A stretch of 64,000 nucleotides of DNA. Origin: Nemertoderma westbladi. Its lineage: Eukaryota > Animalia > Xenacoelomorpha. A program made the position numbers and the translations under genes. Where the stretch lies: assembly GCA_032718475.1 (NCBI GenBank), contig JAUCBJ010001376.1, forward strand, positions 46,139 through 110,138, given 5' to 3'. Under the pieces are notes generated by a model. That model saw only the letters and a list, made by a program, of their open reading frames with translations, was not told the origin of the DNA and did no database searches. Below, one piece after another: positions 3,001 to 59,913 of the stretch; the first letter of the stretch is position 1; each line of letters starts with the position of its first letter.

Positions 3001-3569
3001 TCACCGACGAACTTTTGCGGATGTTAATGGAAGAAATCACCGCCTATCTCAACGAGAGACCGCTTATGCCAGTCTCATCTAGTCCCAACGGCCTAGAAGC
3101 GCTAACACCCGCGCATTTCCTACTAAAGAAACCTGTAGCCATGCTCCTGCAATCGAAAATAACAGACGGAGACGAATACTGCCGACAAACTTGGCAACTT
3201 ATGCAGTTATTATCCCATCGTTTCGCTAACCATTTCGAAAAACATTATCTTCCTACGCTACAACTTCGAACAAAGTGGTTTGCGCAGCAAGAAAACGTCA
3301 GCGCCGGAGACATGGTCCTTATCGTGGAATCAGATCTTCCCCGTAAGAGGTGGCAGACAGGTCGTATCATCGAGACTCATATATCTGATGATGGTTTAGT
3401 GCGATCGGTAGAACTCGTCGTCATGCGACGTAACTTTAAGAAACCTGGAATTGTGTTCGAAACGCAACAAATTAATCGCCGGTTGGTCGTTTATGTTTAC
3501 TGGAAAGAGACCGAGAGTTGTCCGGTAACTATGGAAGGCAAGAGACTCTTCCCACGACCACCTCCCTAA
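1..3569 (+). pseudogene. pol: BEL/Pao pol (RT, RNase H/Peptidase_A17 region, integrase), broken by stops and frameshifts
   Basis: RVVFDGSA, GPNLL..L.GILLR, SDIEGMFLQV, YMDD at 702-713, TLGLKWD, FDPLGFISP, LHVFGD, PRVELKAA, WRHCPG...PADIASRG, integrase H..H/C..C, DLFGP, SDKGTNF, GGSWERL, LN.RPL, LTPAHFLL, W..GRI. In-frame stops e.g. at 628, 783, 1857, 2421, 2877. Confidence 0.95.
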
Positions 3570-5112
3570 TCCAACAAACATCTAGGGACTCCGCAATGTA
3601 ACAGCGTTTAGAGTGGGTGTGTGACTACATTATTTTATTTTTTATTTTTATATTTATGTATGTATTATTATGTAATTTTATTATTATTATCGTTTTCTTT
3701 AATTTTATTTAGTAGAATAATATTTTAACGATTATTCAGTATATTAGTGCAATATATTCGTGTTTTATTACTTAATTACATAATATAATATATTTCGTTT
3801 AAAGGCGAGAAATAATTCATTTTCTCTTTCCTTACTGTCCGTATCATACTATAAATACATGACTACAGTAAGATGAAATGTCAGTACTTGTTAAAGTACA
3901 ATACCGCCCCTACTATACTTAAGTATTATTGGTAAGTAGAGTATTAGGAATGCAAAGTTCAGATCCTCGTGTCTCGGCTAAACCAAGCTCTGGGTAGACC
4001 TTGGAAACGACTTGCCTCTTCTCACTGACATTGCTTCTTGCAATATTGCTCTCATACCATATCTTAAATAATACATATAGTAGAATGATGTCCATTTAAC
4101 AGTAGCATTGAAGCGCAAAAATAAATCTGTTAAACCCTTTGACCATCTGAAATTCTAGTCGATTAAGATATCACGGCACCCATCCTCTAAAATTCTAGTC
4201 GATTAAGATATCGTAGTACTTACCGATACTCTTAAAAGGCAAAATTCTGGAATTAAGGATCCTAGTCCCCAGACATGTTCTGGAATAAAATTGTGTCTAT
4301 TTTAATATCAAATAATAAAATTCACGGGAATAAATTTTAAATTCATATCCTCTCATGAATTTAATAAATTGTCATTTTATACAATTTATAAACATTCTCA
4401 AAATTCCGTTAATTAATATATCATGGGAGCGGAGATTCACCCTATTAAAGTACATCAATGTGAGAGAATCTCCAGTGTACAGTCAATAGCCGATAAAATT
4501 CAAAAATTATGTATAAGGGGAATATTGACAATTAAACAGTCACTATTAAATAGCATCCCAGATCTGTATGCATGAGAAATACCCTAATTCTACCTCTAGC
4601 TTTGCATAATGTCACCATAGTAACAACCACGCTAGAATTAGAAGTGAGTTAAAAGAACAATAGAAAGCTTGCCCCATTGAATAGCATGCGGAATAAATAG
4701 CACCTTGCTAGTATCTAGGGATACATAATAATAACGTGGTATTCTGGAAGGCATTTGACTAATGGACAAATGGCCCTAATTTGTACAAATTGCGGCAGGA
4801 ATGTGGAATTTGTGTATTTATAGGTGAATGTTGCTACTAAAGTGTGTTTACAGTAGCGAGTCGCAGTTGTGAAAGTTACTCTGCATCTGTAGCAAGTACC
4901 TCCAGTATATCCAAGCCCTTGGGACGGACTGTGGAGTGACTCACGCTGGTTATTGTTGTCATTGTATAGTTACTACGTTGGCGAGAGGCACAGCGACGAC
5001 AGTACATCAGCGCTGGGGATCTCATGCTGTCTGGGATCATAGAGGGGGAGGCAGCGACGCCCGCTAGCCTTATTATTATTAACTATAATATCGATAAACT
5101 CATATAACAGCT

Positions 5113-7642
5113 ATGACTGAGTTGATAGAAGATGATCTTGGTATCAGGGAGCGATATACCCTACCACTGCAAGCGTTTGTTGATAGTTTGATAACTGGCG
5201 ACGCTAGTCAACACACGACGGAAGACGATGACCGTTATATCGAACCGCCAATGTCAAAAGAACAGCTCAAGCGTGAATTGGACTATCGGAAATTCACCGC
5301 TCGCTATACGCATCGTAATGGTACGTATATGGACTTCTTAACTACTGGTCATCCTATCGATTTACACAATACGGACGATGTAGACACTAAAAGGGAAATG
5401 ATTCTATTTAAATATCATGCCCAGCGGAGTTGGAATGATAAACTGAGAATTGAACAAGAAAATTATATTCGAAACCGACTCGAAAGAGAGAATGTGGAAG
5501 AATGTTTTTAAAAGACAAGTGGAGGGAAATCAGCTGGAGAAAAACCATACAGTAATGTCCAGGGTCCAAAATGTGAATAGTTTTCCCCGGGGCGCGGGTG
5601 CTCGCAGGCAGTCTCCTTCGGGAGGCCTCTTACCTCATCCTCTTCCTGCAATTATTGTGATCAGTGTCACAATAAAAGAGTAAGAATGAGTAATGACGTG
5701 AAAGGAAAACATGCCCATTGTGGTATCTTATAGATACTATCCCCAAATCCTTCCTCCTTCCTACCACTACTCTCCCTCTACCCATCGCTATCTATCGAGG
5801 ATATAAGACGTTGATAGAGAAACACTCTTCCCCCCATCTTTTCTACCCAAAGCGCTTGGAGCTTTCGGGAGAATATCGACCCATCATTGCTATATCGTGA
5901 TATTGATCATACCTCCTCCTACTAAACCTCCCCATCGTTTACTATTGATCTGGATGCTTATATTGGTATCCATACCTCCTGTTTGTGTACCATCGTGTTG
6001 GTATTTATAATATCAACCTCCACCCCTCTTGTTGTTGATTGGATAATCAACTATCAATAATTTCCTCAAGTCCATGGCCATTGATACAAGGACTGAAAGG
6101 ACACAATAATAGTCTGTGAACAACTGGTACCATTATGTGTCATAAATCTGGTTGTTCACCTTCCTTAGTGCTTGGGAATAAATTCAGTTTGAGATAGCCA
6201 TCGAATGTTGAATCCTCTTACTGAGATCGTATTTCTGCCTATTTCTGAATATATATGACATAGGCCTTCCCTGGCCCTATATCATCAATGGAAGACATAT
6301 TAAGTGAATACAATAAATTCATCAGATTCGAATGCTTTAGGCGCTTTCTGACTCCATTCCACAATGTTGATAGTCAGTTCAAGGACTGCGCTTTGACTAA
6401 GCTCAGCTTAAGAGACTCAGCTGCTGAGAAGTTGGACAGCGCTGGATTCGCCATTTTTAAGGACGTTTGTATACATAACCTACATTCATCTGTCATACAA
6501 AGATCCCGAATCTCCACTGGTTATTCTATTGTGGAAGTTCAAACAGTGGGTTCACTTGAGGAAACAGCTGCGCCTATCTCAGCTGTGCAAGTGGAAGAAG
6601 AACCAATTTGCTTGGAATCCGAAGAGATTCAACCCACAGCGCCTAGGAGTAGCGACAATGATTATGTGTTAGAATGGTATCAGGGTCCACAATGTCTCAC
6701 GGCATATGATTATCAGCATGCCAATTACATTTCTAGGAAACGTTGCCGATTATGTGCATCACGAGACCACTTTACCCCGGTGGACTCCAGCGAACCCTGC
6801 TCCTAATTTAAAGATCAACCTATTATGGAGATTTATTGTGCGTATTGTAGACTCAACAATCTACACATCTTCGCCGTCTGTCCTCAATTTATGACTCAAT
6901 GTCACCATTGTCAGTTCAAAGGACATGCAAGTTTCGATTGCCCTTTCAACCGGAGAGCGTAGACGAAACAGTTACCCTGCGCTACATCATAGCTTGGGAA
7001 GCTAACGCGGATCTCCATTGCGAATCACATAACCGATACTATCCAGCGTTTCACCCATAGCTCTTTGCATCCATCGAACAAAATTCTCGCATTCCTAGTT
7101 ACGAACTGATGAAGCATGTTGGCGAGAATATTTCAACTAAATATGTTCGCAAGTATCTTAGGAATATTAATCCCAATAACCTGAATTCCTATAACTTGAT
7201 CAACTTCATCCGTCAAGATCAGGAATACGGCGACTTGTTCATAAACTCGCATCCTGAATTACAAGAAATTCATAGACAACCATATGAATATAAAGCCAGA
7301 GAACGCAAATTAGAGAGAACAATCAAACCGCGGAAATTTCTCACTACACACGGTCAACCTAAAGCTGTCGTACAAACGACCCATCAAGGACCGGTAAGAG
7401 CTGCCGTCCTGAAACGAGCTCTAAAGGTTGTTCACCCTCGTTCCACCGATGTTGATATCGATCAACCAGGTACCTCGACCGGCGGATACACCGACCGTAA
7501 TCCAAAACCTTCTGATGCAATTGTATTGCACCCTTCCCCCAGGAGTTATAGCCCTCCTAGTAAAGTGGCTCGTCCCAAAGAGAAAAAGACTCTTACTAGT
7601 CTCAAAAAACTTCGTAAACGCCGTTCACGAAAGAAGGACTGA
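5113..7642 (+). pseudogene. Accessory (env-position) ORF of element A, with zinc-knuckle cluster; homologous to the accessory ORF of element B
   Basis: ORF pieces 5113-5511, 6288-6806 and 7109-7642. Reading through TAA at 6804 gives EPCS*FKDQPIMEIYCAYCRLNNLHIFAVCPQFMTQCHHCQFKGHASFDC. A frameshift near 6955 leads to IIAWEANADLH and, after one more stop, into the 7109 ORF, which has a basic C-terminal tail (KKLRKRRSRKKD). Confidence 0.75.
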
Positions 7643-9683
7643 TAGTTTAGAGTATTTTTGTATTTTAGAAACTGTGATTTTTTATATATTATAGACTTAA
7701 ATCCCATTTTCTGGGAGCGGTGTAAAAGCTTTTGCAGACATAACAAGTCATTTTTACGCAATGCGCAGAATACTCTAAAATAGCCCTAAAATTGTTCAAC
7801 TACGCGTCAGAAAGAAATTAGAACCAAGATGACGTAATCTGTCAGCTGATTCTTTGTGTACGTGGAGATCTCTTTGTTCCAGCTTATTTCAGCCAATCAG
7901 AGCAATCTTCCCAGTTATGCCAGTAGAGACCTACCTGAGGAAACTGACGCATGCGCAGTTATCGTTTTTCTGAGAATTAGATTCTTCTCAGAATTCTGTA
8001 CCAAGTACGGTCGTTTCAGACTTTAGCCCAAGAACATCTGATGAATGGAGTTATATGGACGTAAATCTATTAACTGAATCACCATTTCAATTCATACAAA
8101 CATAACATAACTACTCAATACGACGCATTGCACCAAACTGAACTTCATGAACACATACTGACTGATCACCGCACTGTTTTACTGCTGTTTTATATTGTGT
8201 TAATTGTTGTTTATATTAATGGATGTTATATTTAGAGAATACCGATAAATAATTGTAAACCCCTCAATCTTCTTGATTACTGAGGTAAGCGGAGAAAGAG
8301 TTTACCGGTAGCAACTGCGACTTAAATTATAGTGGTTTTTATGTGAATTAAATGCTATTTCATAATCCCTACGTGTATCAGTTGCAATCCTCCTTGCCTT
8401 ATATATGATCAAAATCAGTGATGGTCGGCAAATTAGTGTGAATCAGTGTAAATTAGTGTGAAGTCGTGTGAAGGTTAATAAAGCATCTCCTAAAGAATGC
8501 GCTATTTACGAAACTCTGTGGCCATCTAGTTGTGATTAGTATAAGTCATAACTCTGTTTTTATACTTAAAGCACCACTTCCTAAAGGAACTGTTAATATT
8601 TCCCCGAAAGTAAATATAGTTGTCAGAGATTATATAGTAGCGATCAATCGAATAATACAAAGTAGCTTACACCGCAATACTTCCTCCGGAACCCGTATCC
8701 AGTCTCCCACACCGTGGGTCATACGCCGCGCCCGGTCTGGCTTCGGCAGATGTAAATTCAGTAAACCAGGTAATTGGTACGGGCAAAGTCGATTCATAAA
8801 CAAAAGGACAATTAAAATTGGCAGGTTAAACTACTAAAGGTCTGAAAGCGCGAACAAACGTTGGGGTTATGAAATAGCATAAATATCATACAGACCACTG
8901 TAATTTGAGCCAAGCAATTGTTACTAATGTTCCCTTCTGCTTACCTCTTAATAATAAAGAAAGTTATTTGGGATTATCGATTATTCGTACGTATTCTCCA
9001 AATATAAACATCCATTAAATATGTTACCAAATAACAATGAATAACATTATAAGACAGTATCAAATATGCGGTCTCGGCAGTTAATCAGCAATCAGATGTT
9101 TGCTGGTACAACAGTCCGAGTTTTTAGATGTCAGGATATGCATGCAGTGCAGTGCAGAGAGTGGAGAGATAATTTACTTTGAGCTCTATAACTCTAGCCA
9201 CTGATGGTCTAGGGCAGAAGTCAGAATGAATGATTCTGTCGCATTGCGGCATATTCATATGTAAACAACAGGAGAGTATGGAGAGTGAGAGCAAAGGGGG
9301 TTGAGTATTGGGGAAGTATAGGAGGAGAGGTACGAAAGTTAGGGGGGAAAAGTGAAGTGTGCGAGATCCAAGTGAGGGGGCAAGCAGTAAGGATGAGTCC
9401 TATGGGACTAGTGTAAGAGGACATTGGAAGATAGAGTCCAGGATAAAGTTGCATGAGGAGAGGGGTTGATCATCTAAACAGAGACGCCAGATGCCTTGGT
9501 ACAGCTTAGCTCGCAGATGTACCAAGGATGGGTAGTGAAAACAGACCCATGGGGGCCGGCCAGGAAAGCTTACCCCGATAAGAAAATTCCACCCCACATC
9601 CAATATTAGATTGGATTCCAGCGGAATTGAAGCGCACTTAAGGTTGATGCTATCTTCTCACCGGGAAGATTGCCTGGGGGGAG

Positions 9684-11423: not shown

Positions 11424-11761
11424 TGTTGCCATTATTCCCGACACCAAGGGGGAAAACGCCGATGCTGGAGGCGGAATTTTCAGACCTCTTTATCCCGGCC
11501 AGTCACCGGATATTGTGAGTGGAGAAGGATGTTATCTGAGATGCAAGATTGCGGGTAGAGAAAAAGTTTCATTGGTTGGATATAATCTTTAATGTAACTT
11601 GAACTCTGATTGAATCCTGATTGAGAATACTTTGGGCTTCCCCAAACCAATATACCAAAATAATATTCACAATAATACACAAATATAAATTCCTACAGTA
11701 AATTATTTAATTACCCACTGTTCGCTTAACTTTCAGATTTTGACCTAACTAATGTTCACCA
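11424..11761 (-). repeat. Putative 3' LTR of element B (338 bp)
   Basis: On the - strand: PPT-like GCGGGAAAA, then TGGTG...CAACA (imperfect TGTTG/CAACA termini) with internal ATTAAA. No second copy in the window. Confidence 0.6.
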
Positions 11762-11817
11762 TTTTCCCGCGGTCCTAGTCCCGGTACCGTAGAGTCAGAG
11801 TTGGTCGATCCTTTGCT

Positions 11818-12160
11818 TGTCCGTCCCACCCTTCCCGAACCCTAAAGGGATCGGTCATCAGGAAAGCGGTATGGCTTAGCTAGGGGTCTGTCGGTTCATC
11901 GCAGGGTCCCAACCACCTAAGCTTTCCGAATCCTTTTCAGGCTCGTAATCGCGTCGGTAGCCGAGAATCTGCTCCGAATAGTCGGTAGGCCAGTAGAGTC
12001 CGGTCCTCTGTCTTTCGACTCTGTCGCATGTCCGTCCCACCCTTCCCGAACCCTAAAGGGATCGGTCATCAGGAAAGCGGTACGGCTTAGCTAGGGGTCT
12101 GTCGGCCCGTTGTGAGTCCCAACTGTCGGAGCTTTCCGAGTCCTTTTCAGGCTCGTACTA
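11818..12160 (-). repeat. Direct repeat with ~212-bp period in the 3' UTR of element B
   Basis: GTCCGTCCCACCCTTCCCGAACCCTAAAGGGATCGGTCATCAGGAAAGCGGTA(T/C)GGCTTAGCTAGGGGTCTGTCGG at ~11819 and ~12030, each followed by GCTTTCCGA(A/G)TCCTTTTCAGGCTCGTA. Confidence 0.9.
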
Positions 12161-12898
12161 ACACCAGTCATGGAACCCACGCCAGGAAGTCAGTCCTCGT
12201 CGAACCCTTCCTTTCCGTCCGGTCAGTCGATCCTTCGCAAGTCCACAATGCGAAGACTCCGCCCGAGTCCCTTTCAGGCTCAGTCATAGCCAACGCACCG
12301 GAAACCGCTTAGGATCTGTCAGTTCCCATCGCAAATCCCTGGCGCAACCAGCAACGCCCTAGTCCCTTTCAGGCTCAGTCGCCACTGATGGCCAGGGACA
12401 GCTAAGGGCAGTCCTTGTCCCCAGGCCTAGCGGGTTTCCAACTACCGAAATAGAAGGAGGTTGTCTAGGCCTCAGTAACTATCAGGCAACCCTTACAGCT
12501 GAGAGTATTGCTTGATTTTGCCTCCCACCCCTGGCCCTTAAATATCTGATATGATTCCTGCGCCCCGTAAGTCGTCCCAAGATTCGCCCATAACTCGCCC
12601 CCAGTCTATCGAATGTACCCAAATTTTGTGTTCCCGCACCCACCACTGATATTGGCACATTCATAAAAAATAAATCCAAAAAATATGTAACTCGCGTTAT
12701 GATAAATTGAAATACCGCAAAATCCCCCCAAATGACCTTTGTGAGGTCTATCGGTAGATCGAGTTTGCGTAAGGTCATTTCCCCATATAAAAACCCAATT
12801 TTTATTATTGCATAGTCTTGATTAATTTGTCCTAGAGTCAGTTTACATACATATAAAAATAAATGTTCAAATAAATGTCTATAAAATGTCCTGGTCTT

Positions 12899-15497
12899 CT
12901 ATCTCCTGCTTTGATATGCTTTCCTTTTCTTCGCCCGTCGACTTTCATCTATCACCAGTGCGGGTAGAGGAGCATCATTGGCCGACGTGAGCATCGCCGC
13001 GGCCTGCCTCCTGGCAGCCCTTCCTCGGGGAGGTATCGAGATGAGATCTGTTCTCCTCTCCAGCTCGGTGGTTCGAGCCGCCTGGAACCATTCTCCATCT
13101 CCAAACGCTTTTGTATACGAATATAGACGTCTAATCACTTCGAAGGGGCCGAATAGGTTGGCGCTAAGCAATAAATCCTCATAGTGGAAAGGCAAGGTCT
13201 TTACTGTATGGAGGCATTCGGGGAACGAAATATACCCGCACGCCATCTCCTGTGCGATGTTATGGGCGCTCAATCGTGCTCTGGTCTTTACGTGTACGTT
13301 GGCATACGTCTCGAACATAACCATGTTCCCGGTAGCCATAATGTCCTTGGTAGGACATTTAATGTTGCACCGAGGGCTCGCTGTATGCCCACGGAAGCCG
13401 TACGTTGTACAGACGTTATACAGTGTCGGGCAAACCGCTATGTCATGGCCCGGGGTAGTGCAATATGGACAATAGATTATCCCGAGGATTTGGAAGCACG
13501 GTTCGGTTATTCGTTGTTTCTTACCGCGAGGAAACTGATCCGAACCGCAGCTACTGCAAACATCGAGTTGCATTTCCCGACCGAAAAAGATCGGGATTTG
13601 TACGCCGGCGTAATATTCCAGTCATCTATCCTTTTTAGGGATAATCGTCGTAACCGGAAGCCCGTGGAACGCCGCGCTGTCGCGGAGTTGAGCCTAGCTT
13701 CGGTATCCCTCCTTATGGTCTGCAGGACGCATCTCGGGTGCCCGTTTCTGAATCCACTCCGTCTGTTCGGTGTACCATTGGGTGAGTCTCATCAGGTCCT
13801 GTGGAATGGTGGGAGCCGTCGCAACAGCCGGTCGGCGAAGGGGTGCCGGGATATTCGCCGAAGGAATCCCGAGGAGGTCTCCGGAGGTTGGTGGTATACT
13901 AGGGCCCTTCGTAACTTGGATAGCCGATTGGGTCCGCTGTGTACTGGTACTTGGGGTTTCTGTGGACCAATCCTCTCCTCCAGGAAACGGGTAAGGAGAT
14001 AACCTCGTGCATGCATTGTCGAAGTCACTAAGTGCGAGGGTGGTAACTAGTTCTCTTGCCGCACTACCAGAGCCAAGTGGAGTGGTTACGCCGGATTCCG
14101 TCGCTGGCTCAGTCGCGGCAATACGCTTAGCAGCTGATTCGTAGTCAACTTCCGGTGCGTGTTGACGTTTTGGTGTAGATAGCAGAATACCTTTGTGTTT
14201 CCATAACTCCTCTCCTTCCGACGACACTATAGCTCTATTACTCTGCGCCAAGGAGATCGGTAATCGTGGGGATATCGAATGGTCTGTGCAGATCCCAGGA
14301 TTCGATTACATCGAGCGTCTTGGTATCTCCCGGTGGGATATTCTGTACTGCCTTGAACGTGTGGTCGATCACCTCGTTCCATTCGTAATCTATGAAGGAC
14401 TTTGGGACCGCGCTAATAAGTTTATCGAGGGTTTTATAGATGAACTTAGCAACCGTGTACGATTTAATCGTGACGTAGATGTAGTTCCGTCGATCCGGAT
14501 CATCCCAGCGTTGGTGGATCGTCCACTTCCTATCTACATTCTTCCAATGGTTCTCCCGCTCATGAGGTATCGCTAAATCCGGATGCACGCCGTAGAATTT
14601 ATTGTAGTCTTGGAACTTCTGTGGTTTAAAATCTAAACCGCCATTTAGCACCGCTAGGTAGCCGATACCGGATTTAGTCTGTCTCACCTCTTTAAACCCG
14701 CCCATAAAGTCCGTGACCAGTAACCAGGCCAGCAGGGTTTGGGTGTCGATGAAGTGGCTAATCGCGCTAATGTCCTCTCTACGATTCATTCCGAATGGAG
14801 CGTTGATATAGTCGTTCCGGAGATCCGCTTTTATATCTGACCCGATTTTGATAATATCGAAGTCGAACAGGACCTGTTGGATCGCCGATGGTAGTAGCCA
14901 GATTACCCCGGCTGTCTGTATCTCTTGGCAGGATGTCGGGAAGATTCGGCACACTAACACCAACCCGTCCAGGGTTCCGAGGACTACTATTAGCGACCGA
15001 CCGTACTCCTTCGTCCCGTATTTCTCTTTATAGTCGTCTCGGTTTTGGATGACTGCCATTCGTTCCTCTCGCAGCGTCGCTGTATATTCCGCCAGGTTTC
15101 CCCAGTGTGTGAGGTATGTACTCTTGTCGTCAATGAAACTCTGGCATCGCACCATTGTAATCGCCTTTGGAGTCGGCATCGCATTGCCTTCGTTGTCATA
15201 TATTAGGCACCGGGATTTGTAAACGCTTTGCCGGAATGTATCCCAGAATGACAACTCTCCTCCTCCGGTTGCCTCAGCGTTCCGAGTCCTTTTCAGGCTC
15301 GTACTAGCGTCGGTGAACCGGAGCGGCTGCAGGTTACGGGAATCCGGGACCTCCCTCCCAGAGAAACGAATGACTCGCACATTCTCGCTCAACAGGATGT
15401 TCCATTTCGCATCAAAACTAGGAGATCCAGGCTGTGGGTAGTCCAATAAATCAATCGTATTACGTAATTCGCCAAGAATCTGGCGATTCGGGTCCAT
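12899..15497 (-). pseudogene. Accessory (env-position) ORF of element B: DEDD/WRN-like 3'-5' exonuclease-type domain, S/T/P-rich linker, CCHC zinc knuckles (~865 aa reconstructed)
   Basis: The 419-aa ORF joins the 185-aa ORF by one frameshift near 14250. The 185-aa and 224-aa ORFs are in the same frame, separated by two stops (TAG at 13694 and a TGA near 13623). Motifs: LLPSAIQQVLFDFDIIKIGSDIKADL, FIDTQTLL, SGIGYLA..NGGLDFKP, CPYCTTPGHDIAVC (CX2CX4HX4C). Confidence 0.75.
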
Positions 15498-15807
15498 ATT
15501 GTAAATTACATCCGTTACAAATTAATTCAGTTAATTATAAATCCAGAAAGTCTGATTCTATAGCGACTGCAGAATAGTTATTTTTAATATAGTTAATGTT
15601 ATTGATATATAGGCATCTATCATCTTATTGTTACTACATTCAGTATTTACAGTTGCTATAGCTATACATTATTATCCAACCAGTTTTTTTGACTTTTTAT
15701 GTCCGCTTCTTTTTTAAATTCCTTTTCCATTCTACATTTTATACTTTTTTTTTGTCTTTTTTCATTTCTATAGTTTATTCATTTCACATTTCCTTTTTTC
15801 TTTCACA

Positions 15808-15882
15808 TTTCATCATTTATTCCACCATTACATCATTTATTCCACCATTACATCATTTATTTCACCATTACATCATTTATTA
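15808..15882. repeat. Short 20-bp tandem repeat (CATCATTTATTCCACCATTA, ~3.5 copies)
   Basis: Visible directly, upstream of the element B accessory ORF. Confidence 0.85.
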
Positions 15883-16084
15883 CACATTTCATTGGGGTTA
15901 TAGCCCCCCGGCTATCATCATTGGTTATAAGCACAAAGCACCAGGGATGCGCATCATCACATTTTCATCATCATAATAGTACACGTCATCATTCAGTTTA
16001 TAGTTGAGTTATCTGTTCCTTTTCATCATTTCGTACTACATTCAACCATCTTCTTGGGAAATTTTTTGTTGTGGAAGGGGTGTT

Positions 16085-16425
16085 ACGCAGCAGTCTGGGA
16101 TCTACAGCTGGACTCATTACACCGCCTACCCCAAACTGCACACATAATGGACAATGAATAGAACGATGGAAGTGAAGTCACGCGGAATGCACCAGGGACC
16201 CACCAGAATAACACTCCCAGAAACATAAAGCTCAGCCGACGAAGACATGTGTAATGCACCAGGGACCCACCAGAATAACGTGGCTGAGGAACATAAAGTC
16301 TCTATCGACGAAGTCATGTGGAATGCACCATGGACCCACCAGAATAACGCGATAGGGGGTGTTGCGCGGCAGTCTGGGATCTACAGCTGGACTCGTTACA
16401 CTGCCTATGCCCCAAACTGCACATG
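16085..16425. repeat. Nested direct repeats in the pol / accessory-ORF spacer of element B
   Basis: ATGCACCA(G/T)GGACCCACCAGAATAAC x3 (~16188, ~16255, ~16323); GCAGTCTGGGATCTACAGCTGGACTC(A/G)TTACAC x2 (~16090, ~16369). Confidence 0.85.
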
Positions 16426-16704
16426 CAACAGACAACACAAGACAAACATAATGGATACAATGAATTCCATTTCGAAACTTTCCCATTTCCAATAATCCAA
16501 GGTAGTTGGTCCTGATGACCAAAATCAGGGTGAACAAAACATAAACTACCCTAAGTCAGTCGAAACATCTGCAGGGTGACGCTGGACTCCACATAACACA
16601 CGAGGAAACACAAATACCATGCGTGGTTACAGTTGGTTTAAGGGGGGTCCATAATCATTGTCGCTAAATCACATTTAAAGAGTTTGTCAACAGGATGGGA
16701 AGGG

Positions 16705-19700
16705 TTAAACGGGTTTGTTATTGTCACCAATGTCAGAAGCAGGATCCAGAGTAGGGAACTTATCACCTCTCGTGGTGTCACCATTGTCATTGCCTTCGAG
16801 AAGGCAAAGCCTCTGGATAGGGCATTGGTAGTGGCCCTTTGCCGTTCGTATCGTCACCGTTCTCGCAAGTCCATCTTTGCTAGGGGTTATCTCCATGACA
16901 CGCGCCACAGGCCAGTGGACGCGGTCTTTAAGGTCTTCCTTGACGAGCACCATGTTGCCAACTGCAACATTCCGGTACGTATCATTCCATTTCCTCCTTG
17001 TTCGAAGGGTTATAAGGTACTCCTGAGCCCAAATTCTCCAGCAATGCGCCATCAGCGCTTGGGCTTTCTTCCAGCTGGTGTGTTTCATGATGTCTTTGGG
17101 ATCCGGGAACATGGCCTCCGGAAGGATGTTGGTCTTAGGTCTACCAGGGAGATGGTTGGGTGTGAGGGGTTCCAGATCAGTTGGGTCGTCATGGATGGGA
17201 ACGATTGGCCAGTTGTTTAATGTAGCCGTAATATCGCAGAATGTGGTGCGCAACGTGTCATGAGTGACCCAGGTATCCCCTAATGCGATCTGCATGGATC
17301 GTTTCACTAAATCAATGAGTTTCTCCCATACCCCACTCGTATGGGGTGCTACTGGTGTTTGGAAGTGCCATTGGATGTGGTGTTCCTTCCAGACGTGTGA
17401 TGTGGTTTCGTCAGTAAACATCCTTCGATAGCCTCTCTTAGTTCCCTTTCTCTTCCCACAAAGTTCGTTCCGTTGTCTGAGTACATATGCCGGCATGAAC
17501 CATTGTTCGCCACGAACTGACACAGGGCGTTGATGAATGTGTGTTGCTTGAGGTTCACTACAAGGTCCAGGTAGATCACCCTCGACAGTAGGCAGGTAAA
17601 GATTGCTCCCCATCATTTAATGTTGGATCATCGCTCTATAACTGTAAATGGTCCGAAGCAGTCTACGCCAGTTACGTAGAATGGCGGTGAGTCGGACTGG
17701 AGTCGCGTGGCCGGCAGATCGGCCATTCTTTAGGTGAGTGGTGGCGCTAGATCTCTCCTGCAAGGGAAACACCGTTTCAATACTTTCCGAATTAGCGGCT
17801 GGATGTGGGTGATCCAGTATCGTTGCCGGATATTGGCCATGATCCAGTTTTGGCCTGCGTGATGGTTTTCCTCATGACATTGTTGGACTAGCAGCTTGGC
17901 TGGTGTAGACGTTCCTGGCAGAAGTGCCGGATACTTAATTTCGTACTCTACCGGGACCGGGGTGTTCGCCATCCGGGTATTAAGGTGGATCAATCTGTCC
18001 TCTCCCATCATGGGTCTCAACTGGTAGACTGGGCTATCAGGTTTCAGGATCCTGCCCGCATTGAGCTGCTCCCATTCGTCGGGGAAACTTCTTTTAACAT
18101 ATCTTACAATACATTTCTCTGCGATAAGGAGTTCTTGTACACTCCGCCAAAATATCGGTTTGTTTTCCTTCCACCACAGGAAATTACGGAGAGTCATAAC
18201 GTGGTGGATGAGACGTTTCATTGAGGAGGTCCGCTCTATGAGGAGTCGAAAGGATGCGGCTGGTTGCTCAGTGGTCGCAACGTTATAGTGCCTGCCAGAG
18301 TCCTTTACAGGCTCATTCAGACAGCTATAGATCTCCACGGTGGCACTCCCACGGACCATGCGGATCTCCTTATCGTCTTCCGAGTATTTCCCGCTATCTA
18401 ATCCGGGATCGGATCGGGTGCTCCAGATTCGTTGCGGTTGCTTTAGGGATTCCGCGCCCATAAGCCAGAGTTTACTCCTACCAAGCTGTCGCGGGGTGGC
18501 GCCTCGGCTCGATAGGTCCGCTGGGTTCTCTTTCCCGTTTACATGATGCCACTGTTCTCGGTTGGTGCACTATTTTATTTCCGTGGCCTGGTTCGCCATG
18601 AATGTTGTGTGTCGTCGTGATGGTGAATGGAGGTAGTATAGCACTATGCTGGAATCGACCCAGAAATGTTGAGATTCGATAGGGATTCTAAGGTTTCGCA
18701 TAATCATGCGGTTTTGTCTTAGGGCCCAGACTGCAGCTTGCAGCTCGAGCCTTGGGATAGTGGCCACAAATTCCCTGGATACCATCTTCGCTTTGGAGAA
18801 TATGAAACTAATATCGATGTTTCCATCTTGGCTTAATCTCTGGATATACGTAACCACACCAATTCCGGTATTCGAGGCATCCGAGAAGGTATGGAGCTGG
18901 AATATGTCGGTGGGCACTTTTTTGAGGAAGAACAGTCGAGGAATCCGCATAAGGTGGAGCTGTTCAAGTTGCTCCGTCTATTTCTTCCATTTGGCGCTAA
19001 TGTGTGGGGGGACTTCTTCATCCCATTGGTTTGGGTTGGGGGTTATGTTTGAAGATAAACTGGTCCAGTTTTATGTCCCATTCAATTCCAAGTACGCGGT
19101 GGTCTACACCCTCTGAGTACATTTTATCATTATCCAACTTGATCTCTTCCGGGAGCCTTTCCATAAGCTCTTTGCCGTGTGATCTAAACTTTACTAAGGG
19201 GAAACCTCCCCTCTTTAAGCATTCCACCATTCCAATTGCGAGCTGATATGCCTCGTCAACATTCTCGGCGCCAGCGCATCTGTGGTCTCGATGACAGCCG
19301 GAGGAAACTCATTTTCGCACATGGTCGCAGTTTTCTTCAGCATGTCGCTACATGCGACCGGCGAGTCCTTAGCACCAAAGATCCGGACGATCATCTTCAT
19401 TACATCCACATCCTCCAAGGTAAGTTGATTTATCCCTTGTGGGGTTAATGCTTTGTCTGTCCATAGAATACGAAGGCAGTCAGAATCTCGTGGTAGCATT
19501 CGAACCTGGTGGAACATTGCTTTGATGTCACACGTGAAGGCTACTTTATTCTCCTGGAATCGGATTAATACGCCGATCAGCGTGCTGTAGATGTTAGGTC
19601 CGGTGTATAGTTGGCTATTTAACTACTCATCTTGGTACATAGCCGCAGCATCATTCACCACCCGGATCTTTCCGCCCTTCCGGGCCTCTACCACATAGTG

Positions 19701-22700
19701 GCTTGGAAGATAGTAGGTTCGTTTTGTCCCATGCAGTTTGTCCAGGGGAACCATCTCCACTAATCCATCTTCCAGGTATCCCTTAATCACATTGTTATAT
19801 TTTTCCTTGTTCTCGGGTAGCTCGTGCAACCTGCGCAAGATTCCCATTAGCCTCCTCAGAGCCATACTAGCATTTTTAGCCATCGGTCTGTCCGGATCCT
19901 TCCATAACATTGGAGAGCACCCATGCCCGTCCTTAAACACTGCTTGGTCTAGAACGTCCACACAGTATTGGTCTTCCTCCGATGGGTTTTTGTCTTTTTC
20001 GTTGAATTCCTGGGTTTCCAGGTTAAAGTATTTCGTCATCTCTTGTTGTGTCTTCTCCGTTTCCAGGAATAGATCCTCATCCATATCGGTCGCTGAACAG
20101 TAACCCACGGATGTTGTATTTCCTTCAATCTGGCACTTTGGGAGGTATGTGTAGGTATCAGTGGTTTCTTCTTTAATCCCGCAGAGCGTCCATCCCATAA
20201 TGGTGCGCTCTGCGTAGAAACCGTCGTCCGGCTTTACGGAATGGGCGATATCTCCAGTTGGTATATGTAATTCTGGTGTATCGAGTCAGATAAGTAACGT
20301 AATTCTGTTAACGTCCAATGGTGGGCATCTTAGGTCCACATCCTCCCGATCTAGTTGTATAAGGGGTGCGTATTCAGAGGATTGTCGGAATTGCACTCTG
20401 AGATCGGTATGCACCAGGGTGTTTTTAATAGTTAATTTCACCCTTTCATTTCCTGCCATAACCCCTTCTACACTGAGTTGCACCTCTCCGGACTCCACTT
20501 CCTTATGGTCCGTTATAGTTTGTATGGGTCGCTTGCAGGGCTCATATTGCCCAGCTGTTCCAGAAAGGCCCTGTCAATTATGGTCCCGTCTGACCCATTA
20601 TCCAGGAAGGCAAGTGTGGTCAGGGATTTCCCAACACCTTGGATTCTCACCAGTATCACCTTGGCAAAAACCATATACCGTCGGTTGATCAGGTTGACCG
20701 TAGCCGATATACTGGTCACGTGTGCTACGTCAGCGGTAGTCTTGAACGGGTTTGTTTCTTTCCGCTGGATCATCCGGGAACCCTTCGAGATGTGGCTTGT
20801 TTCCCCTTTCCGCTTGGATTCAATACGGAATTGTAATGTAGTGAAGTCAAAGTTTGCAGGAATGTGGAGGAGCGTGTGATGTCGTAGATCGTTACAAACC
20901 GCACAACAGGACCTCTGTTCGCAATCCCTCACATAGTGGCCTGTGCCAAGACACCGGAAGCATCCCCGGTGTTTCATGATCGCTTCAAAGCGATGGGCTA
21001 GTTCTGCGAACTGGAACTTTTTGCAGAATTCTACTTTGTGCTTCTCTCCGCAGAAGAGACATAGAAGGGAGGTCATGGTGCCTTCCCTCTCGGGCGCCCA
21101 ATTTGCCAGATAGCACGCCCATTCTTCTGCTGACGTCGGTTCCTCATAATCCTCGTCATCCGAATCCTCGGCTATGGTGATGGCCATCGGACTTACCGGA
21201 GGAGGGCGGAATTTCGGTTTTGGAGTGGGTGCCCTGCTCCGAGAAGTGCTCTCTATCCCATCCAACTTGGAGAGACTCTGTTTAGAGAACGTGGAGTCGT
21301 TCATGGCCTCGGAGATATCATCTAGGAATGCCAACATTTCAAGAAAGCTAGGATCACGATCCGGGTGTCTTCGTCTGAGATCTACACATTTGTATGCCCA
21401 TTTACTTTGTAGCCATCCGGGAAATTTCCGGGCAATTTGTCGAAGGTTTAAGATATTATTCACCTGTTCTTCTTTGTTTAATGGTTTTAGAGTATAATAA
21501 GCATCCTTCATTGAGTCTGAGAACTCTTGAATATTCTGTGGATCTCCTAGAGATCCAGCATCTTGTATCAGTTTTTCAAGTATCTTATTAATTATGGTTC
21601 CAACATTGCCATATCTTTTATCGAGCATTTTCCACGCATCGTGGTTGCCTCGCGGGATCCTCCTTCGAAACATCTCACAATACGGCGTGGTTTGTCACCC
21701 AGATACTGAGATAAGTATACCAGCTTCTGCGCGTCGGTAATGTCTGTCGATCCGATTTGAGCGTAGAACCGTTTTTTAAACCCGAGGTAGTCGACGGGGT
21801 CACCCTCAAAGTTACGAATTTCCATCTTAGGCATAGCCAGACGGTTCTCTAAGGCTCGTATGATGCCGACGTCGTCTGAACTGGAATGACTAGGAGGTCC
21901 GTAATTACTAGCACTCTCTCCCATACATGATGGATCGACAAGAGAGGGAGTTTTAATAACAACGCGGTTACGGATTTTCGGAGTAGACGTAAATGGATTA
22001 GTGGATCGAGGGGTGGCGTCACGTTCCGAGTCCCTTTCAGGCTCGTACTTGTGGACTCTCGGTGCCGTAGGATTGGAGGGGAAATAAGGTTCCTCATTCT
22101 TAAGCGTAACTGGTTGGGGGTGGAAAACCAGTGCTTGCGCCGAGAGTGTGGTCTGTATGACCGGCGGGAACTCAATGTTTCGGAGGTTTTACTGCCGGTG
22201 GTGTAAACGACTTCTCTAATTCCGGAACCGGGATTGGTTCATAGTCCTGTTCTATACCGTTCTCCCAGTCCTCGTACAGTTGAAGGTCTCGTTCAATGAG
22301 TGCGGCCTCGTAGTCTGCGAGTTTAGCGATATCCGCATTCTTTTTGTGAATAAGAAGTGTGTGGGCCTCTGCATATTGTTTACCTATTTCGGCCTCCTGT
22401 TTACGTATTTTGGCCTGTTGTTCAGCCTCCTGTTTATGCATTTCGGCCTCCTGTTTACGTATTTCAGCCTGTTGTTTAACCTCTTGTTTACGCCTTTCGG
22501 CCTGTTGTTCGGCCTCCTGTTTACGTATCTCGGCCTCCTGTTTACACATTTCAGCCTCTTGTTTACGCATTTCGGCCTGTTGTTCGGCCTCCTGTTTATG
22601 TATTTCTTCCGCTAGTACATCCTGTTCAATTTGTAATTGAACGTATTCATCCTCCATCCGGGCTTTAAGGGCCCTTGCTCTTTGTTCCCGTAACTGGTCT

Positions 22701-22762: not shown

Positions 22763-23275
22763 GTACTACTAGGATCGGCATGCTGCATTGCAGCTGCATT
22801 TTTAGGAATGCTGTGCCGGCTTGTCAACAAAATTACACCGTCACAACTCCCTATCACCAATGACATTTGCTAGATCATCCGCATCTTGAAGGCCAGTGTC
22901 CTTTAAGCTTCATCTCAAGAATGTCATGGGCTGTCCACCATGCTTATTCACTCCATGAGGCTGCCAAAGCCCAAAAAGATTATGCACTGGTGCAAGCAAT
23001 GTCCTGCAAAGCATAGGCGGCTTTGTTCTAGTGTCAAGCTTTTGGGAACCACTGAGAAACCTTCAATGTTATATTATGTCTGGTTGGAGATGTGTGCATT
23101 GTACTTGAAACAGTGAACTCCGCGTAGCATTCTAGCCATCCAGAGATTTGGTGTCCTCAGCAGTCCGAGCCCAGCATGGACTCCCATGGTAGAGTACTGG
23201 AACTTCTGCTGTTCTAAATAATGGGATCTTAATTTTCCGATTACTTCTACGTGACTTCCAAATCCTGAAAAGCAA
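22763..23275 (-). mobile_element. RTE-type LINE 3' fragment
   Basis: Reverse-complement similarity to the LINE 3' ends at 44060-44340 and 35480-35615 (GAAGATGCGGATGATCTAGCAAATGTCAT..GTGATAGGGAG); ends in a short TAGTAGTA tail against gag of element B. Confidence 0.8.
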
Positions 23276-23604
23276 CCTATTATGTTATACTAATATTATA
23301 ACAACCTGTTATGGACACAGGGAGTATGGGTACTTTAATTGGTGCAGATCTTGCACGGTCCTTGTTTGGAAAAGAACAGGACCATCTTATGAAACTAACA
23401 TTGTAACTGGAAATTAAGGCAGGCCATACCATGGATACTATAAAGATTATCATAATCAAAAATTTTGGTAGAATTATGGCTAACCCTATTAATCCCGGGG
23501 GGGGGGGGGTCAATATGACCCCCTCCCCCCCCCCCCCCCCCCCGTTGTTTTTTTATAATACTTGTAAATGTGCCATCTTGATGTGAATGTGCATTCTTGT
23601 AAAT

Positions 23605-24115
23605 GTGCCATCCAGAGATTTGGTGTCCTCAGCAGTTAGAGCCCAGCATGGACTCACGTAGAGGATACTGGAACTACTGCTGCTCTAAATAATCGGACTT
23701 TAAGTTTCCGATTAATTCTCAGTGACTTCCAAATCCTGGAAGGCCTATTCAAGGCTGCCCATGCCTTTCCCTTACGTATTCGAAGGTCCCCACCTGACTT
23801 CCGGATCCATGATCCCAGGTAACAGAAGTCGTCCACATGCTCAAGCATACCATCCTTTGAGCTTATGCTCATCCAATCAGAGACTTGCTGAGGACTTTCA
23901 AAGTTAACTGTCAGAATTTTGGTCTTTCTGGAGTTAATAAAAAGACCAACACTAGAAGCAGCATGTTCTAATGAGCTGAGGAGCCGTTGGGCTTCCTCTA
24001 ATGATTCTGAGAGTACTCCTAAGTCATCAGCAAAGTCTAGATCAGTTAGGTACTTGGCAGGATTTCCTCGACTTCTGGAGCCAGTAGGTGGAGTTATCAT
24101 CACCCCATCATCATT
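23605..24115 (-). mobile_element. RTE-type LINE RT fragment
   Basis: ORF 23654-24103 has LTDLDFADDL, GLFINSRKTK, VDDFCYLGS, KVRLFRAAV; it overlaps the preceding fragment by ~140 bp of diverged homology, so these are two separate copies. Confidence 0.9.
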
Positions 24116-24293
24116 ATGATGATCTAAGGCCTATCTACGTCCTAGCCTGCGTTTAAGAAATATATTTAAATACAAAACAGGACGAACGCAACGAGGCTTA
24201 TAATGAAAACGAGTACTGCGTTTATTATATTCCTATAAACCACCTGGCTTTGCATATTGAACGTGCGATTGGAAATAAGTTCGTGCTACCCTT

Positions 24294-27200
24294 CCATGGG
24301 TGGTAGATGTCGCGGTTATGTATTGGTGGGTGGGAAGGGTGGGGGGGGGGGTGCAGTTTAAAAAGGCTGAACACGTACTGTACCCTTTTCTTTAATTGAT
24401 TGGTGGTGTGGGTAAATTTCTCAAATACTGATTTTGTGATACAGTCGCTCAGTTTTAATTTGTATCTCATAACTGGGCCTCGTGCTGCGCGAAGGCCCCA
24501 CGAACGTGTTCTTACTGCAGTGCTCCCAGTTGCACCTTTTTTACCTTTTTTCTAGCCATTTACCATATATCAATATGTAAAGTCGTGTTATACAATCTTA
24601 ATGGTACAGGCGCGTTTCCAATTTATATTATTTATCCAAATATTACTAGTAGGACTACAGTTGTATGGCCAATAGGCCTACTCATTCTGTTTTTCTGTTT
24701 GGTACACAGTACTGCAGAACACACTCAGACTCAGTCTGTCAATACTCAATAGGCGTACAGAAACTGAAAGATATCAGTGAGTCTGTTCTGTAGGCTGTAT
24801 AATGTTTTGATTTGATTTGATGTATTCATACTGTATTAGGCAGCACTACCGTCTACTGTCACACTGTACAGTTGTACTGCATTCTGGCATTATCTGGCAT
24901 TATAATTATAACTTTATAATATTAAACTTATATCTTATAACTTTAAAATATTATTATACCATGCCATCCAACGCTTCCAAATGGCGAGTAGAGTGGGAGC
25001 ACGAAAAACTCAGGACATCCCCAGAGCTGACAGTTGGGAAAGTGTTTCGGCCGGTTCAGAATGATTCTGGATTGGCTCACTGCATTGCCTGCAATAAAAC
25101 CGTGTCGGTTAAAAGCAGTGGCCTTTCCGCTCTTCGCCTTCACCATGCCACACCTCTACACATCCGGAATGTACAATCTATCTGCCAAACACCGACATTA
25201 ACCCTTGGTCCACCTACAATCCCATCCCAATCGAGTATTAGTTCGAATATGGTTCCCTTGGAGGTGCAGGTCTCAACCTCTACGCAACCTTTAATTAGCC
25301 ATATCTTGTCTCCAAAACACCTATGCACAAAGGCTGAATGTGTGATAATTTTGAAAGCAACTGAGTCTGAATACAGCTTTGCCTCCCTAGATAGCATTGT
25401 TGATGTACTGAAGGTGGTTGATCCGTCGTCTAGTGTTATCAAAGGGATGCAGCTTAAACAAACTAAAGCGAGTTACATTGTTGGACACGGCCTTGGTCCT
25501 TATTTCGCCCAGAAGAAGGTGCAGCTGTTAGTTAACGCAATTTCTGATGGTTTTATCTTTGGTATTCACTTTGATGAGACCACAAACGCGAAGGTGGAGA
25601 AACAGTGTGATGTTTATGCACAATTTTTTTCACCACAGAAGGGGCGAGTTATAAACATGTTTCTGCAATCCATTTTCTTTGGTCATGCAACTTCGGACAT
25701 AATGGTGAAAAAATTTGAGGAACATCTGTTTTCGAAGTTTTCCAACATTGATTTGTCTTCCTGGCTCTATTTATCCATGGATGGTCCCAATGTAAACAAG
25801 GCTTTTTTCCGGAAAGTGAATATATACCTGGAGTCACATGGGTTTTCTCCATTGTTTGATTTTGGAACTTGTCCCCTGCATCCAGCACATTCAGGGTTTC
25901 GGACTTTCCTTACAGCGATTTCCAGTGCTGGTCTATTTGATTTTGATGGATTTGCCACTGATGTACATTTTGTATTCAAATATTCTTCTGCTTGGCGAGA
26001 AGACTTTAGGTTGGTCCAGATAGCAGAAGATGTGGAGCAGCATATAATTCTGCGCCATGTTGATTCACGCTGGTTAACGACAGGCCCAGTAGCAGCACGA
26101 CTACTCGAGCAGCTTCCTGCCCTACGAGTGTTCTTTGCAGGCTGTAAAACCAGTCGGGATGTATCAACTGCTAAATTTGTCAAGACAGCCCGGTTCAAAC
26201 AAATTGACAATGTTATATTTGACAAGCGTACTCCTCTCATGCTGCAAGTAGTCGTGAATATCTGTGCAATATTCCGCCCTTTTCTCCTCACCCTCCAGAA
26301 ATACACACCTCAAATCCATAGATTATATTCCCTTAGCAATGATTTGGTGTATGACCTTCTGTACACCTTTTGCACAAACCTGCGCCTCAATGGTAAGAAA
26401 CTTTCAGGGAAGAAACTTAAGGAGTTTGAAATCCAAAAGTCTGAGAATTGGCGCTCTGACTTTAAGCTTGGAACCATCGATGATCCCGACAATCTGCTGA
26501 AAACTCCAGAAGTGAAAATTGCCATTCGACATGCTCTTAAGAAGATGTCAGAATATTTGCTGGATCACCTTCCAATTAACGACAAGACTGTTCGTTCCCT
26601 ACAAGTTGTTGATCCTTATCTCGCCCAAACTGCTGAAGGTGGAGCTGCAGGTGTGCGCTACCTCACATATCTGACACAGCTGTTTCCAAAAGTGGCTGGG
26701 AGTGACTCCATAGATGGACAAACTGTAGTCAAGGAATATGAAGAATTTGCTTCTCAAGAACTTAGTGAAGACCAGTTGAATGTGTCGGATGAGGATGTGA
26801 GCGTATTTTGGGGTGACACAAAGAACCATCTGCGAGTCCATACTTCAGTTAAAGCATATCAAAATGTTAGTCGCTTCTTAGCCAATATGGCTGCTATAAC
26901 ACATGGAAACGCCGGGCCTGAACGAGGTTTTGCAGATAATCGAAGAATTATCTGTAAGTCGCGGTCATCCATGAAGAGGACAACAATCATTGGATTGCGA
27001 CACTGCCAAGAGGCAGTGAAATGGGTGGGGGGTGCACACAATGTCGCTTTCACCAGCGACCTTTTTGCTTCTGCCTCTAAGGCATGGGCTGCCTATAATG
27101 TTGAGCGTCTACAAGAAGCAGCGTATAAATTTGAAACTAAAAAAGCTGCCGAGACAAAGCGGCTTTTAGATGAAGAAAACGAGCGTGAACTGCAAGTAAG

Positions 27201-27748
27201 AGCGGAGCTTAAACTCCGCAAATCATCTCTGACAAAGAAGCATAATACTATCACGAACCTGTGTGTCTCTGTACAAACGATGATTAGAGTCGCCGATAGT
27301 CAACTGGCTTCTGCTCTGGCCAGTTGCGACTTGACCTCAGCTTCAATTGCGAATAAATCCCGTGCGTCAGCAGATACTCAACTCAAAGACCATCAAAATG
27401 TATTGTGCTCTATTGCAAAGGAACTTTCTGATATAGATGTGAAGCTGGCTACTTCGAGCAGCAGGAAAAGGCAACGAGTTGATAAGGATTAGTTTAGTTA
27501 GGTGCCCTAATAAACGAATATGTTAACATAATGAATGATTATATTGGATTTGTTAATATGATATATAACATCTATCTCAAAATGTAATATTTGTTTTCTG
27601 GATACGGTTTGGATATGGATACTGGGTATAGGTTTGATTTTTAACCACCTTTTTTTACCTTTTTTTATGACCCATGTTTACCTTTTCACCTTTTTTTTTG
27701 GTGGAAATTCTCCCTGGGAGGGCTGTTACTGTAGAGTACCACCCATGG
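24294..27748 (+). mobile_element. hAT-superfamily DNA transposon, apparently full length
   Basis: 12-bp TIR CCATGGGTGGTA (24294-24305) / TACCACCCATGG (27737-27748); ACCTTTT subterminal repeats near both ends; no clean 8-bp TSD (CTACCCTT vs CTATATTT). Confidence 0.75.
24961..27492 (+). CDS. hAT-family transposase (843 aa from the ATG at 24961)
   Basis: BED-like finger (AHCIACNK...H...H), IHFDETT, SMDGPNVN, CPLH (CxxH), SRW, HGNAGPERGF catalytic-E motif, C-terminal coiled-coil and RKRQR; no internal stops. Confidence 0.9.
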   Translation: MPSNASKWRVEWEHEKLRTSPELTVGKVFRPVQNDSGLAHCIACNKTVSVKSSGLSALRLHHATPLHIRNVQSICQTPTLTLGPPTIPSQSSISSNMVPLEVQVSTSTQPLISHILSPKHLCTKAECVIILKATESEYSFASLDSIVDVLKVVDPSSSVIKGMQLKQTKASYIVGHGLGPYFAQKKVQLLVNAISDGFIFGIHFDETTNAKVEKQCDVYAQFFSPQKGRVINMFLQSIFFGHATSDIMVKKFEEHLFSKFSNIDLSSWLYLSMDGPNVNKAFFRKVNIYLESHGFSPLFDFGTCPLHPAHSGFRTFLTAISSAGLFDFDGFATDVHFVFKYSSAWREDFRLVQIAEDVEQHIILRHVDSRWLTTGPVAARLLEQLPALRVFFAGCKTSRDVSTAKFVKTARFKQIDNVIFDKRTPLMLQVVVNICAIFRPFLLTLQKYTPQIHRLYSLSNDLVYDLLYTFCTNLRLNGKKLSGKKLKEFEIQKSENWRSDFKLGTIDDPDNLLKTPEVKIAIRHALKKMSEYLLDHLPINDKTVRSLQVVDPYLAQTAEGGAAGVRYLTYLTQLFPKVAGSDSIDGQTVVKEYEEFASQELSEDQLNVSDEDVSVFWGDTKNHLRVHTSVKAYQNVSRFLANMAAITHGNAGPERGFADNRRIICKSRSSMKRTTIIGLRHCQEAVKWVGGAHNVAFTSDLFASASKAWAAYNVERLQEAAYKFETKKAAETKRLLDEENERELQVRAELKLRKSSLTKKHNTITNLCVSVQTMIRVADSQLASALASCDLTSASIANKSRASADTQLKDHQNVLCSIAKELSDIDVKLATSSSRKRQRVDKD

Positions 27749-55880: not shown

Positions 55881-56242
55881 AGTTGATGAGACAGAGAACT
55901 GGACTTAGTAAAAAGTTTGTAATTAGATATAAGTGCAGGACAATATACAGTGCAATATTTGGCTTATTTCAGCTTTATTTTTACTTACTTTATCCTATTT
56001 ATCCTTACTTTTATTTTCAGCAATATTCAGCTTTTGAAGGACCTTTTTATAAGTTTTTAACAATATATTATACATATACATTATACACATGTAATACAAT
56101 TAAATATTGTTAATTTATTTTGCAGCTTCTATAGTTATAGCTAATAGATATTAAAAATGTTACACATTTAGACTCTCGGCTGCGCGAAGGCCCCACAATG
56201 TGTAACTCAAAGATATATTATAAATTAGCAGACTGAATGAAG

Positions 56243-59532: not shown

Positions 59533-59913
59533 GTGCTTGCTATTTACATGACGCCCAGCAACATCATTACCATCAGAATCACCATTACTTTTTCCCGTGC
59601 TTTATTTATATAGTTGATATTGAGATGGCCAAAAAATTAATTAAAGTATATATAGTTAAGTTGACGTTCTCAGCATCCATCGGTTGATAAGTTGAATTTT
59701 TTGTGTCTATTATTTAATAAACACATTGAATTTATATTATTCTCTATGATATTGAGATCATTTTAAGAAGTGAGTAACATTTAAGTAAAAATACCACTTA
59801 CAACAAACTATAATAATATTGGCAAGACACATATTTGTAATTCATCACCCCGTAAATACCACCTATATGATCTACGCAATAAGACAACAATATATTGCAT
59901 ATTTAATTTGCAG

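Follow-up and report, generated by a model that had tools for sequence, protein, structure and literature searches.

The BEL/Pao element and its borders

The window, i.e. the whole 64-kb stretch of Nemertoderma westbladi DNA analysed here, carries on its minus strand a decayed, 5'-truncated BEL/Pao retrotransposon, a dead copy that hosts the gene studied in this work (ORF3; Table 1). The Pfam scan found the domains DUF1759, zf-CCHC, Peptidase_A17, Integrase_H2C2 and DUF5641 in the Gag-PR-RT-RH-IN order of BEL/Pao elements, with E values in the upstream gag-pol of 6.2e-05 for DUF1759, 6.5e-22 for Peptidase_A17 and 6.6e-28 for DUF5641. This confirms the BEL/Pao context proposed in an earlier note, which had been made from the sequence alone. 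Both gag and pol are riddled with breaks, and the surviving part of the element amounts to 11.3 kb.

Downstream of ORF3, a 3' UTR of about 1.1 kb is followed by a purine tract and then by a candidate LTR. The earlier note had placed the PPT and LTR at 11771-11424: the end at 11424 holds, while the LTR start is shifted to the TG at 11761, after the purine tract, and the LTR remains a candidate without a partner. Indeed, the 64-kb window contains no second copy of it, and no 5' LTR. On the opposite side the element is cut off by a LINE-type fragment, and 204-240 contigs per sequencing run terminate at 22764, beside a short-triplet tail. None of the contigs of the sequencing runs spans the whole element; two contig joints (12162-15279 and 15308-22023), running from hairpin copy to hairpin copy with sides shorter than 30 nt, were rejected as repeat artefacts. 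In the spacer that separates integrase from ORF3, a promoter scan remained at chance level, with a bacterial model that is not applicable here.

Other features of the window were also annotated. The LINE-type repeat is present as two oppositely oriented fragments (22764-24130 and 43520-44336). An uninterrupted frame of 893 codons (24811-27492, plus strand) has no Pfam match at E 0.01; judged by eye, it bears some resemblance to a hAT-like DNA transposase. A tandem array with a 50-bp unit and more than 60 near-identical units covers approximately 56100-59900, and the first 60 codons of the ORF at 59907-60770 (plus strand), perhaps a host exon, weakly match the PMP22/claudin families (E 1e-04).

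Table 1. Features of the BEL/Pao element and of ORF3 (window coordinates)
Feature	Position	Strand	Evidence or remarks
Candidate 3' LTR, 338 bp, TG (11761)...CAACA (11424)	11424..11761	-	
Purine-rich tract, candidate PPT, immediately 5' of TG	11762..11775	-	
3' UTR	11762..12898	-	four 17-nt hairpin copies and internal duplication
ORF3 piece C, 240 aa: Cys/His knuckle module, conserved downstream segment, basic C-terminus	12899..13621	-	BLASTP to P0001 aa 498-614
Three-part Cys/His module: one perfect CX2CX4HX4C, two degenerate units	13367..13558	-	in piece C
23 codons with in-frame stops on either side (13696-13694 and 13624-13622)	13622..13696	-	breaks
ORF3 piece B, 203 aa, Pro/Ser/Thr-rich linker	13694..14305	-	frame differs from piece A
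ORF3 piece A, 419 aa, exonuclease-type domain	14238..15497	-	ATG 15497, stop 14238
DEDDy/PF01612-type domain, aa 130-365	14403..15110	-	Atlas, profiles, seeded model
17-nt GNRA hairpin copy within ORF3	15284..15300	-	reading phase differs from gag/pol copies
Non-coding spacer, integrase to ORF3, with short tandem repeats	15498..16704	-	
BEL/Pao pol in several pieces	16705..20512	-	ORFs, Pfam; hairpin copy 18298-18314
BEL/Pao gag, broken and 5'-truncated	20513..22699	-	ORFs, Pfam; hairpin copy 22028-22044
LINE-type fragment cutting off the element's 5' end	22764..24130	-	RVT_1 E 1.1e-06

ORF3 joins two domains in one design

ORF3 extends on the pol strand from 15497 to 12899 (2599 nt, about 865 codons), with one frame change and two stops. 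The earlier note had rejoined three pieces into a protein of approximately 865 aa, and its frames and coordinates proved correct. We infer that pieces A, B and C were once a single frame, a reconstruction that includes the change of frame from A to B. Piece B, a low-complexity linker, lacks an ATG near its start.

No Pfam match was obtained for any of the three pieces, glycoprotein families included, and hydropathy revealed neither a TM anchor nor a signal-like N-terminus in ORF3. The sole hydrophobic window (KD19 2.09, aa 168-186) corresponds to two beta strands in the seeded structural model described below. Thus the signal peptide, fusion glycoprotein ectodomain and C-terminal TM anchor of an env gene are all missing from ORF3, and an exonuclease-type domain is present instead, in agreement with the earlier note that the gene is not env.

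The search of piece A against 1.84 billion representatives retrieved two proteins, P0001 (648 aa, E 2.5e-06) and P0002 (472 aa, E 8.6e-05), both single-member clusters, from contigs of 9.4 kb and 2.2 kb, respectively. P0001 matches piece A at 32% over 160 columns (E 4e-16) and, independently, piece C at 27% over 139 (BLASTP, E 1e-08). This distant relative is intact and has the two domains in the order of ORF3, separated by a low-complexity linker, while P0002 has the first, exonuclease-type domain only. P0001 was found with piece A alone and matches both pieces, which makes it the strongest indication that A and C share a single design: judged from these protein alignments, the combination of exonuclease-type domain and knuckles is real. 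Further relatives were not recovered: the homologous-protein search with piece A gave 0/3173 candidates, those with P0001 and with alignment A1 returned only the query members, back-translated scans of metagenome, viral and prokaryote collections yielded no locus, and tblastn of P0001 and P0002 against plasmids produced no match.

Homology and fold of the exonuclease-type domain

The ESM Atlas search with aa 120-400 of the window protein, a partial query for which the thresholds are not calibrated, returned PF01612 in 26 of 30 matches (score 0.92), the other four being fungal clusters. For P0001 the top cluster combined PF01612 and zf-CCHC (0.86), which we treat as a lead only.

As reference we used bacterial stand-alone exonucleases: 73 of 120 loci were kept on the basis of motif, completeness and length, and the three checked all pass PF01612. 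Against the profile of these 73 proteins, P0002 scored 14.8 bits, P0001 8.2 and piece A 5.2, compared to maxima of 0.5, -1.3 and 1.5, respectively, among 200 shuffles each. The hhalign comparison between the three-sequence family and 50 bacterial PF01612 proteins gave 94.8% (E 5.4e-08), and single sequences reached 13% (piece A) and 66% (P0001). No exonuclease was retrieved from the PDB by sequence, whether the query was piece A, alignment A2 or P0002. Overall, these results support the DEDDy/PF01612-type homology of the piece A domain, on which the direct Pfam scan is negative, and are coherent with the DEDD-exonuclease-like domain read in the earlier note.

As to the fold, the unseeded AlphaFold model, built on three sequences, had a pLDDT of 35.8 and no fold match. 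When seeded with 30 bacterial exonucleases, and so partly circular, the model reached a pLDDT of 70.7 and a pTM of 0.70; it matched EXD2 (Foldseek E 2.1e-04) as well as Nibbler, EXD1, diDNase, PolI and WRN (Z 11.7-12.7, at 10-16% identity), with rmsd of 3.1-3.9 and 155-178 aligned positions for Nibbler, EXD1, diDNase and WRN. The seeded model suggests compatibility with an exonuclease fold, which is not independent proof of it, and the model does not allow the subfamily to be named. Indeed, EXD2, Nibbler, EXD1, WRN, RNase D and diDNase were tied in the fold searches, and a capture specifically from piRNA-pathway genes finds no support in these results.

Catalytic motifs and copies of the gene

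Three residues do not vary across the joint alignment: D225 (ExoII), which is present in 33/33 sequences, W331 and Y341. The ExoI column of the window copy reads N152-R-D154 or Q151-N-R153, depending on the alignment; neither is D-x-E, and none or one of the two required acidic residues stands in register. At ExoIII the window copy has Y341-V-T-I-K345, with K345 in the acidic column. The four motif peptides quoted in the earlier note are present as written, and some were misaligned. For ExoI, read there as D-D-K, the absence of D-x-E stands while the register does not, the true column falling on Q151-D154; the ExoIII reading, YIYVT without Asp, was two residues out of register (the Tyr is Y341 and not Y339, and the acidic column is 345). 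Thus, of the argument for a pseudo-nuclease, the part on ExoI survives, for the window copy only, and the part on ExoIII, drawn from the wrong register, may not hold for the family. The corresponding motifs are D-V-E, D and Y..E in P0001, and D-T-E, D and Y..D in P0002, so that by their residues both distant relatives look active.

In three runs from two samples, 249-291 contigs per run map to 14225-15125, and most of them are less than 95% alike. The number and divergence of these contigs, and not contig depth, indicate that the gene is multi-copy and old. Among the 40 listed majority differences, a non-random subset of 103, third codon positions account for 20 (p 0.021 versus one third), a modest sign of coding constraint.

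At codon 345 most contigs of the runs X1-X3 differ from the window, the listed difference being the first base of the codon; the ExoIII damage may therefore be restricted to the window copy, and degeneration may have gone further in this copy than in the family. No majority difference touches ExoI (aa 147-162) among the 40 of 103 that are listed, from which it follows that the ExoI loss is probably lineage-wide. For this lineage the term "pseudo-nuclease" is likely appropriate.

Zinc knuckles and a second BEL/Pao element

The zinc knuckles announced in the earlier note are present, with one perfect unit. Three modules, from piece C, from P0001 and from a broken frame at 6702-6959, have nine invariant Cys/His positions in common. 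A profile built on these three sequences finds retroviral nucleocapsids (best E 2.8e-04), but the Gag of the element itself is not matched by the ORF3 knuckles (E 3.2), which leaves a recent gag duplication unsupported as their source.

The broken frame belongs to a second BEL/Pao element of the window, only distantly related to the first (1-7645, plus strand; 32% integrase identity), where it follows the integrase. There, a related triple Cys/His knuckle module lies at approximately 6744-6950, among broken post-integrase ORFs. Neither an exonuclease domain nor the 17-nt hairpin described below was found in this second element, and its ORF pieces 5098-5511, 6264-6806 and 7061-7642 have no Pfam match.

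A hairpin repeated along the element

A 17-nt motif has seven matches in the 64 kb, compared to 0.22 expected and none in 100 shuffles. On the minus strand, in the sense of the RNA, they are located at 11928, 12138, 12265, 12360, 15284, 18298 and 22028; all of them fall between 11928 and 22044, with one copy in gag, one in pol, one in ORF3 and four in the 3' UTR. Because the coding copies lie in two different reading phases, and others in the UTR, a peptide motif is not the explanation. In five of the seven copies the sequence folds into a hairpin that has a GNRA loop and a bulged A (z -1.7 to -3.2), and the remaining two do not fold in this way in isolation; one copy has GUAA in place of GAAA. 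We consider the hairpin a candidate packaging or localisation signal.

Since gag, pol, ORF3 and the 3' UTR have the hairpin in common, ORF3 and the 3' end are tied to gag-pol. Together with the knuckle module of the second BEL/Pao element, this makes a nested foreign insertion of ORF3 unlikely. The 3' UTR also contains a duplication (11815-11947 / 12026-12157) of 80-133 nt, 89% alike and with a second conserved stem-loop. Its reading as a hammerhead is unsupported by Rfam and folding; the Rfam scan gave no match inside the element.

Comparison with known systems

DEDDy-type ORF3s have been described in the Juno, Vesta and Athena/Terminon elements of bdelloid rotifers by Rodriguez, Kenefick and Arkhipova in 2017, who, in the available part of the paper, already raise 3'-end processing, Mut-7-like silencing and EXD1/Maelstrom-like RNA binding as possible roles (PMC5408684); excerpts of two reviews recount the same genes (PMC5718144, PMC6431247). 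As far as the available text of the 2017 paper goes, the ORF3s of the Juno/Vesta type resemble the one studied here in being a third ORF after pol, with a DEDDy-type domain and without TM or coiled-coil anchor, and their function is predicted only (PMC5408684). The same text assigns them to retrovirus-like elements with GPY/F-type integrases, whereas the host in the window is BEL/Pao, and reports intact catalytic residues (DEED), with no description in that part of fused CCHC knuckles (PMC5408684). In contrast, the window ORF3 is about 865 aa long, has an ExoI without D-x-E and carries fused knuckles. Judging from this portion of the rotifer work, exonuclease cargo in the env position is already known from other LTR retrotransposons (PMC5408684). 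What sets the present case apart is its occurrence in BEL/Pao, together with the fusion to knuckles and the repeated hairpin.

For the proteins with PF01612 of the WRN, EXD2, Nibbler and EXD1 type, the likeness lies in the fold, as seen in the seeded model, and in the motif order. The window domain differs from them by its 10-17% identity, by some 35 aa inserted ahead of the conserved Trp and by a score below the Pfam cut-off; moreover, ORF3 has no HRDC, LOTUS or Lsm partner domain, with knuckles in their place. In 2001, Frame et al. reportedly remarked that CCHC and Exo domains are associated in BEL elements of C. elegans.

The ICTV profile of the Belpaoviridae gives gag, pol and env-like genes only, and a length of 4.2-10 kb (PMC8742986). 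Elements with an env-like third gene include, according to the profile and to the available parts of two further papers, roo, Tas, Cer7/Cer13 and the mosquito elements with chuvirus glycoproteins (PMC8742986; PMC13524379, PMC554778). The window element shares with them the gag-pol order, the Pfam markers and an extra ORF between integrase and PPT. It differs in that this ORF is not a glycoprotein and that 11.3 kb survive, versus 4.2-10 kb (PMC8742986). In the papers covered by our literature searches we found no description of a BEL/Pao exonuclease, and the word "exonuclease" occurs 0 times in PMC3118150, PMC554778, PMC2996953, PMC13524379, PMC2774666 and PMC3013669.

Two other systems offer precedents for an RNA-adaptor role. 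According to the available part of one study, the exonuclease-homology domain of Egalitarian binds RNA stem-loops without catalysis, the putative catalytic residues being about 15 A away (PMC13186709). In C. elegans, CERV is, in the portion available of its description, an accessory exporter of Cer1 genomic RNA (PMC10309623). It resembles our proposal as an accessory protein of an LTR retrotransposon that acts on its own genomic RNA, and thus serves as a functional model only; on the same partial basis, it has neither an exonuclease domain nor a CCHC knuckle, and its host is Gypsy/Ty3 (PMC10309623).

Possible function of ORF3

In our best explanation, which we regard as about evenly balanced between right and wrong, ORF3 is the broken third gene of a decayed BEL/Pao element, consisting of DEDDy-type domain, linker and knuckles, whose product bound the element's own RNA and did not degrade it. 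The ancestor of ORF3 would be a retroelement accessory gene of exonuclease-knuckle type, still active; with ExoI lost in this lineage, the fold and the knuckles would act as an RNA-binding adaptor. The accessory protein, made from a subgenomic RNA, would serve genomic RNA export, localisation or packaging, and the 17-nt hairpins would be its candidate sites, although Gag could be the binder instead. A more specific version seems unlikely to us: here, an Egalitarian-like self-encoded adaptor, with dead exonuclease fold and nucleocapsid-like knuckles, would read the bulged GNRA hairpin, in seven copies including some in coding frames, to route or package the RNA. If true, it would be an address-and-reader system self-contained within one retrotransposon.

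It is rather unlikely, in our view, that the family's ORF3 encodes a 3'-5' exonuclease that is still active, carries RNA-binding knuckles and trims or degrades RNA or cDNA ends (element RNA, primers and small RNAs being possible substrates), residues having been lost only in this old copy. The acidic residues at ExoI, II and III of P0001 and P0002, the D225 retained in the window copy and the difference of most contigs at codon 345 agree with this, as do the heavy breakage of gag and pol in the window copy and the catalytic residues kept, according to the available text, in the rotifer DEDDy ORF3s (PMC5408684). However, ExoI requires two acidic residues in register and the window copy has none or one, a site which the majority differences listed (40 of 103) leave untouched. 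The presence of Nibbler and EXD1 among the top fold matches could instead point to a counter-defence protein, i.e. a catalytically weak Nibbler/Mut-7/EXD1 mimic that binds RNAs or partners of the piRNA pathway and dampens silencing, in line with the anti-silencing decoy among the hypotheses of the earlier note. We find this quite improbable: diDNase, PolI and WRN lie within 1 Z unit at 10-16% identity in a model that was seeded, a pathway-specific domain was not found, and the nucleocapsid-like knuckles suit binding of the element's own RNA equally well.

Lastly, cargo and terminal repeat could come from a different element, fused to or nested in the BEL/Pao copy, as would be compatible with the 5' LTR missing from the window and with a stretch spanned by no contig. 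This is very improbable in our judgement, given a 17-nt motif restricted, within the 64 kb, to gag, pol, ORF3 and 3' UTR, the identical strand and similar GC (0.51 versus 0.48-0.49), the related knuckle module at the same position in the second BEL/Pao element, and the run from 16705 to 11424 without a second pol or an inner terminal repeat.

The repeated hairpin provides a concrete candidate RNA target, which makes the function of ORF3 testable by binding assay. Beyond this element, the occurrence in BEL/Pao of an exonuclease-knuckle ORF3, whose distant relatives look active and whose local lineage is degenerate, suggests that a broadly distributed set of accessory genes is common to LTR superfamilies.
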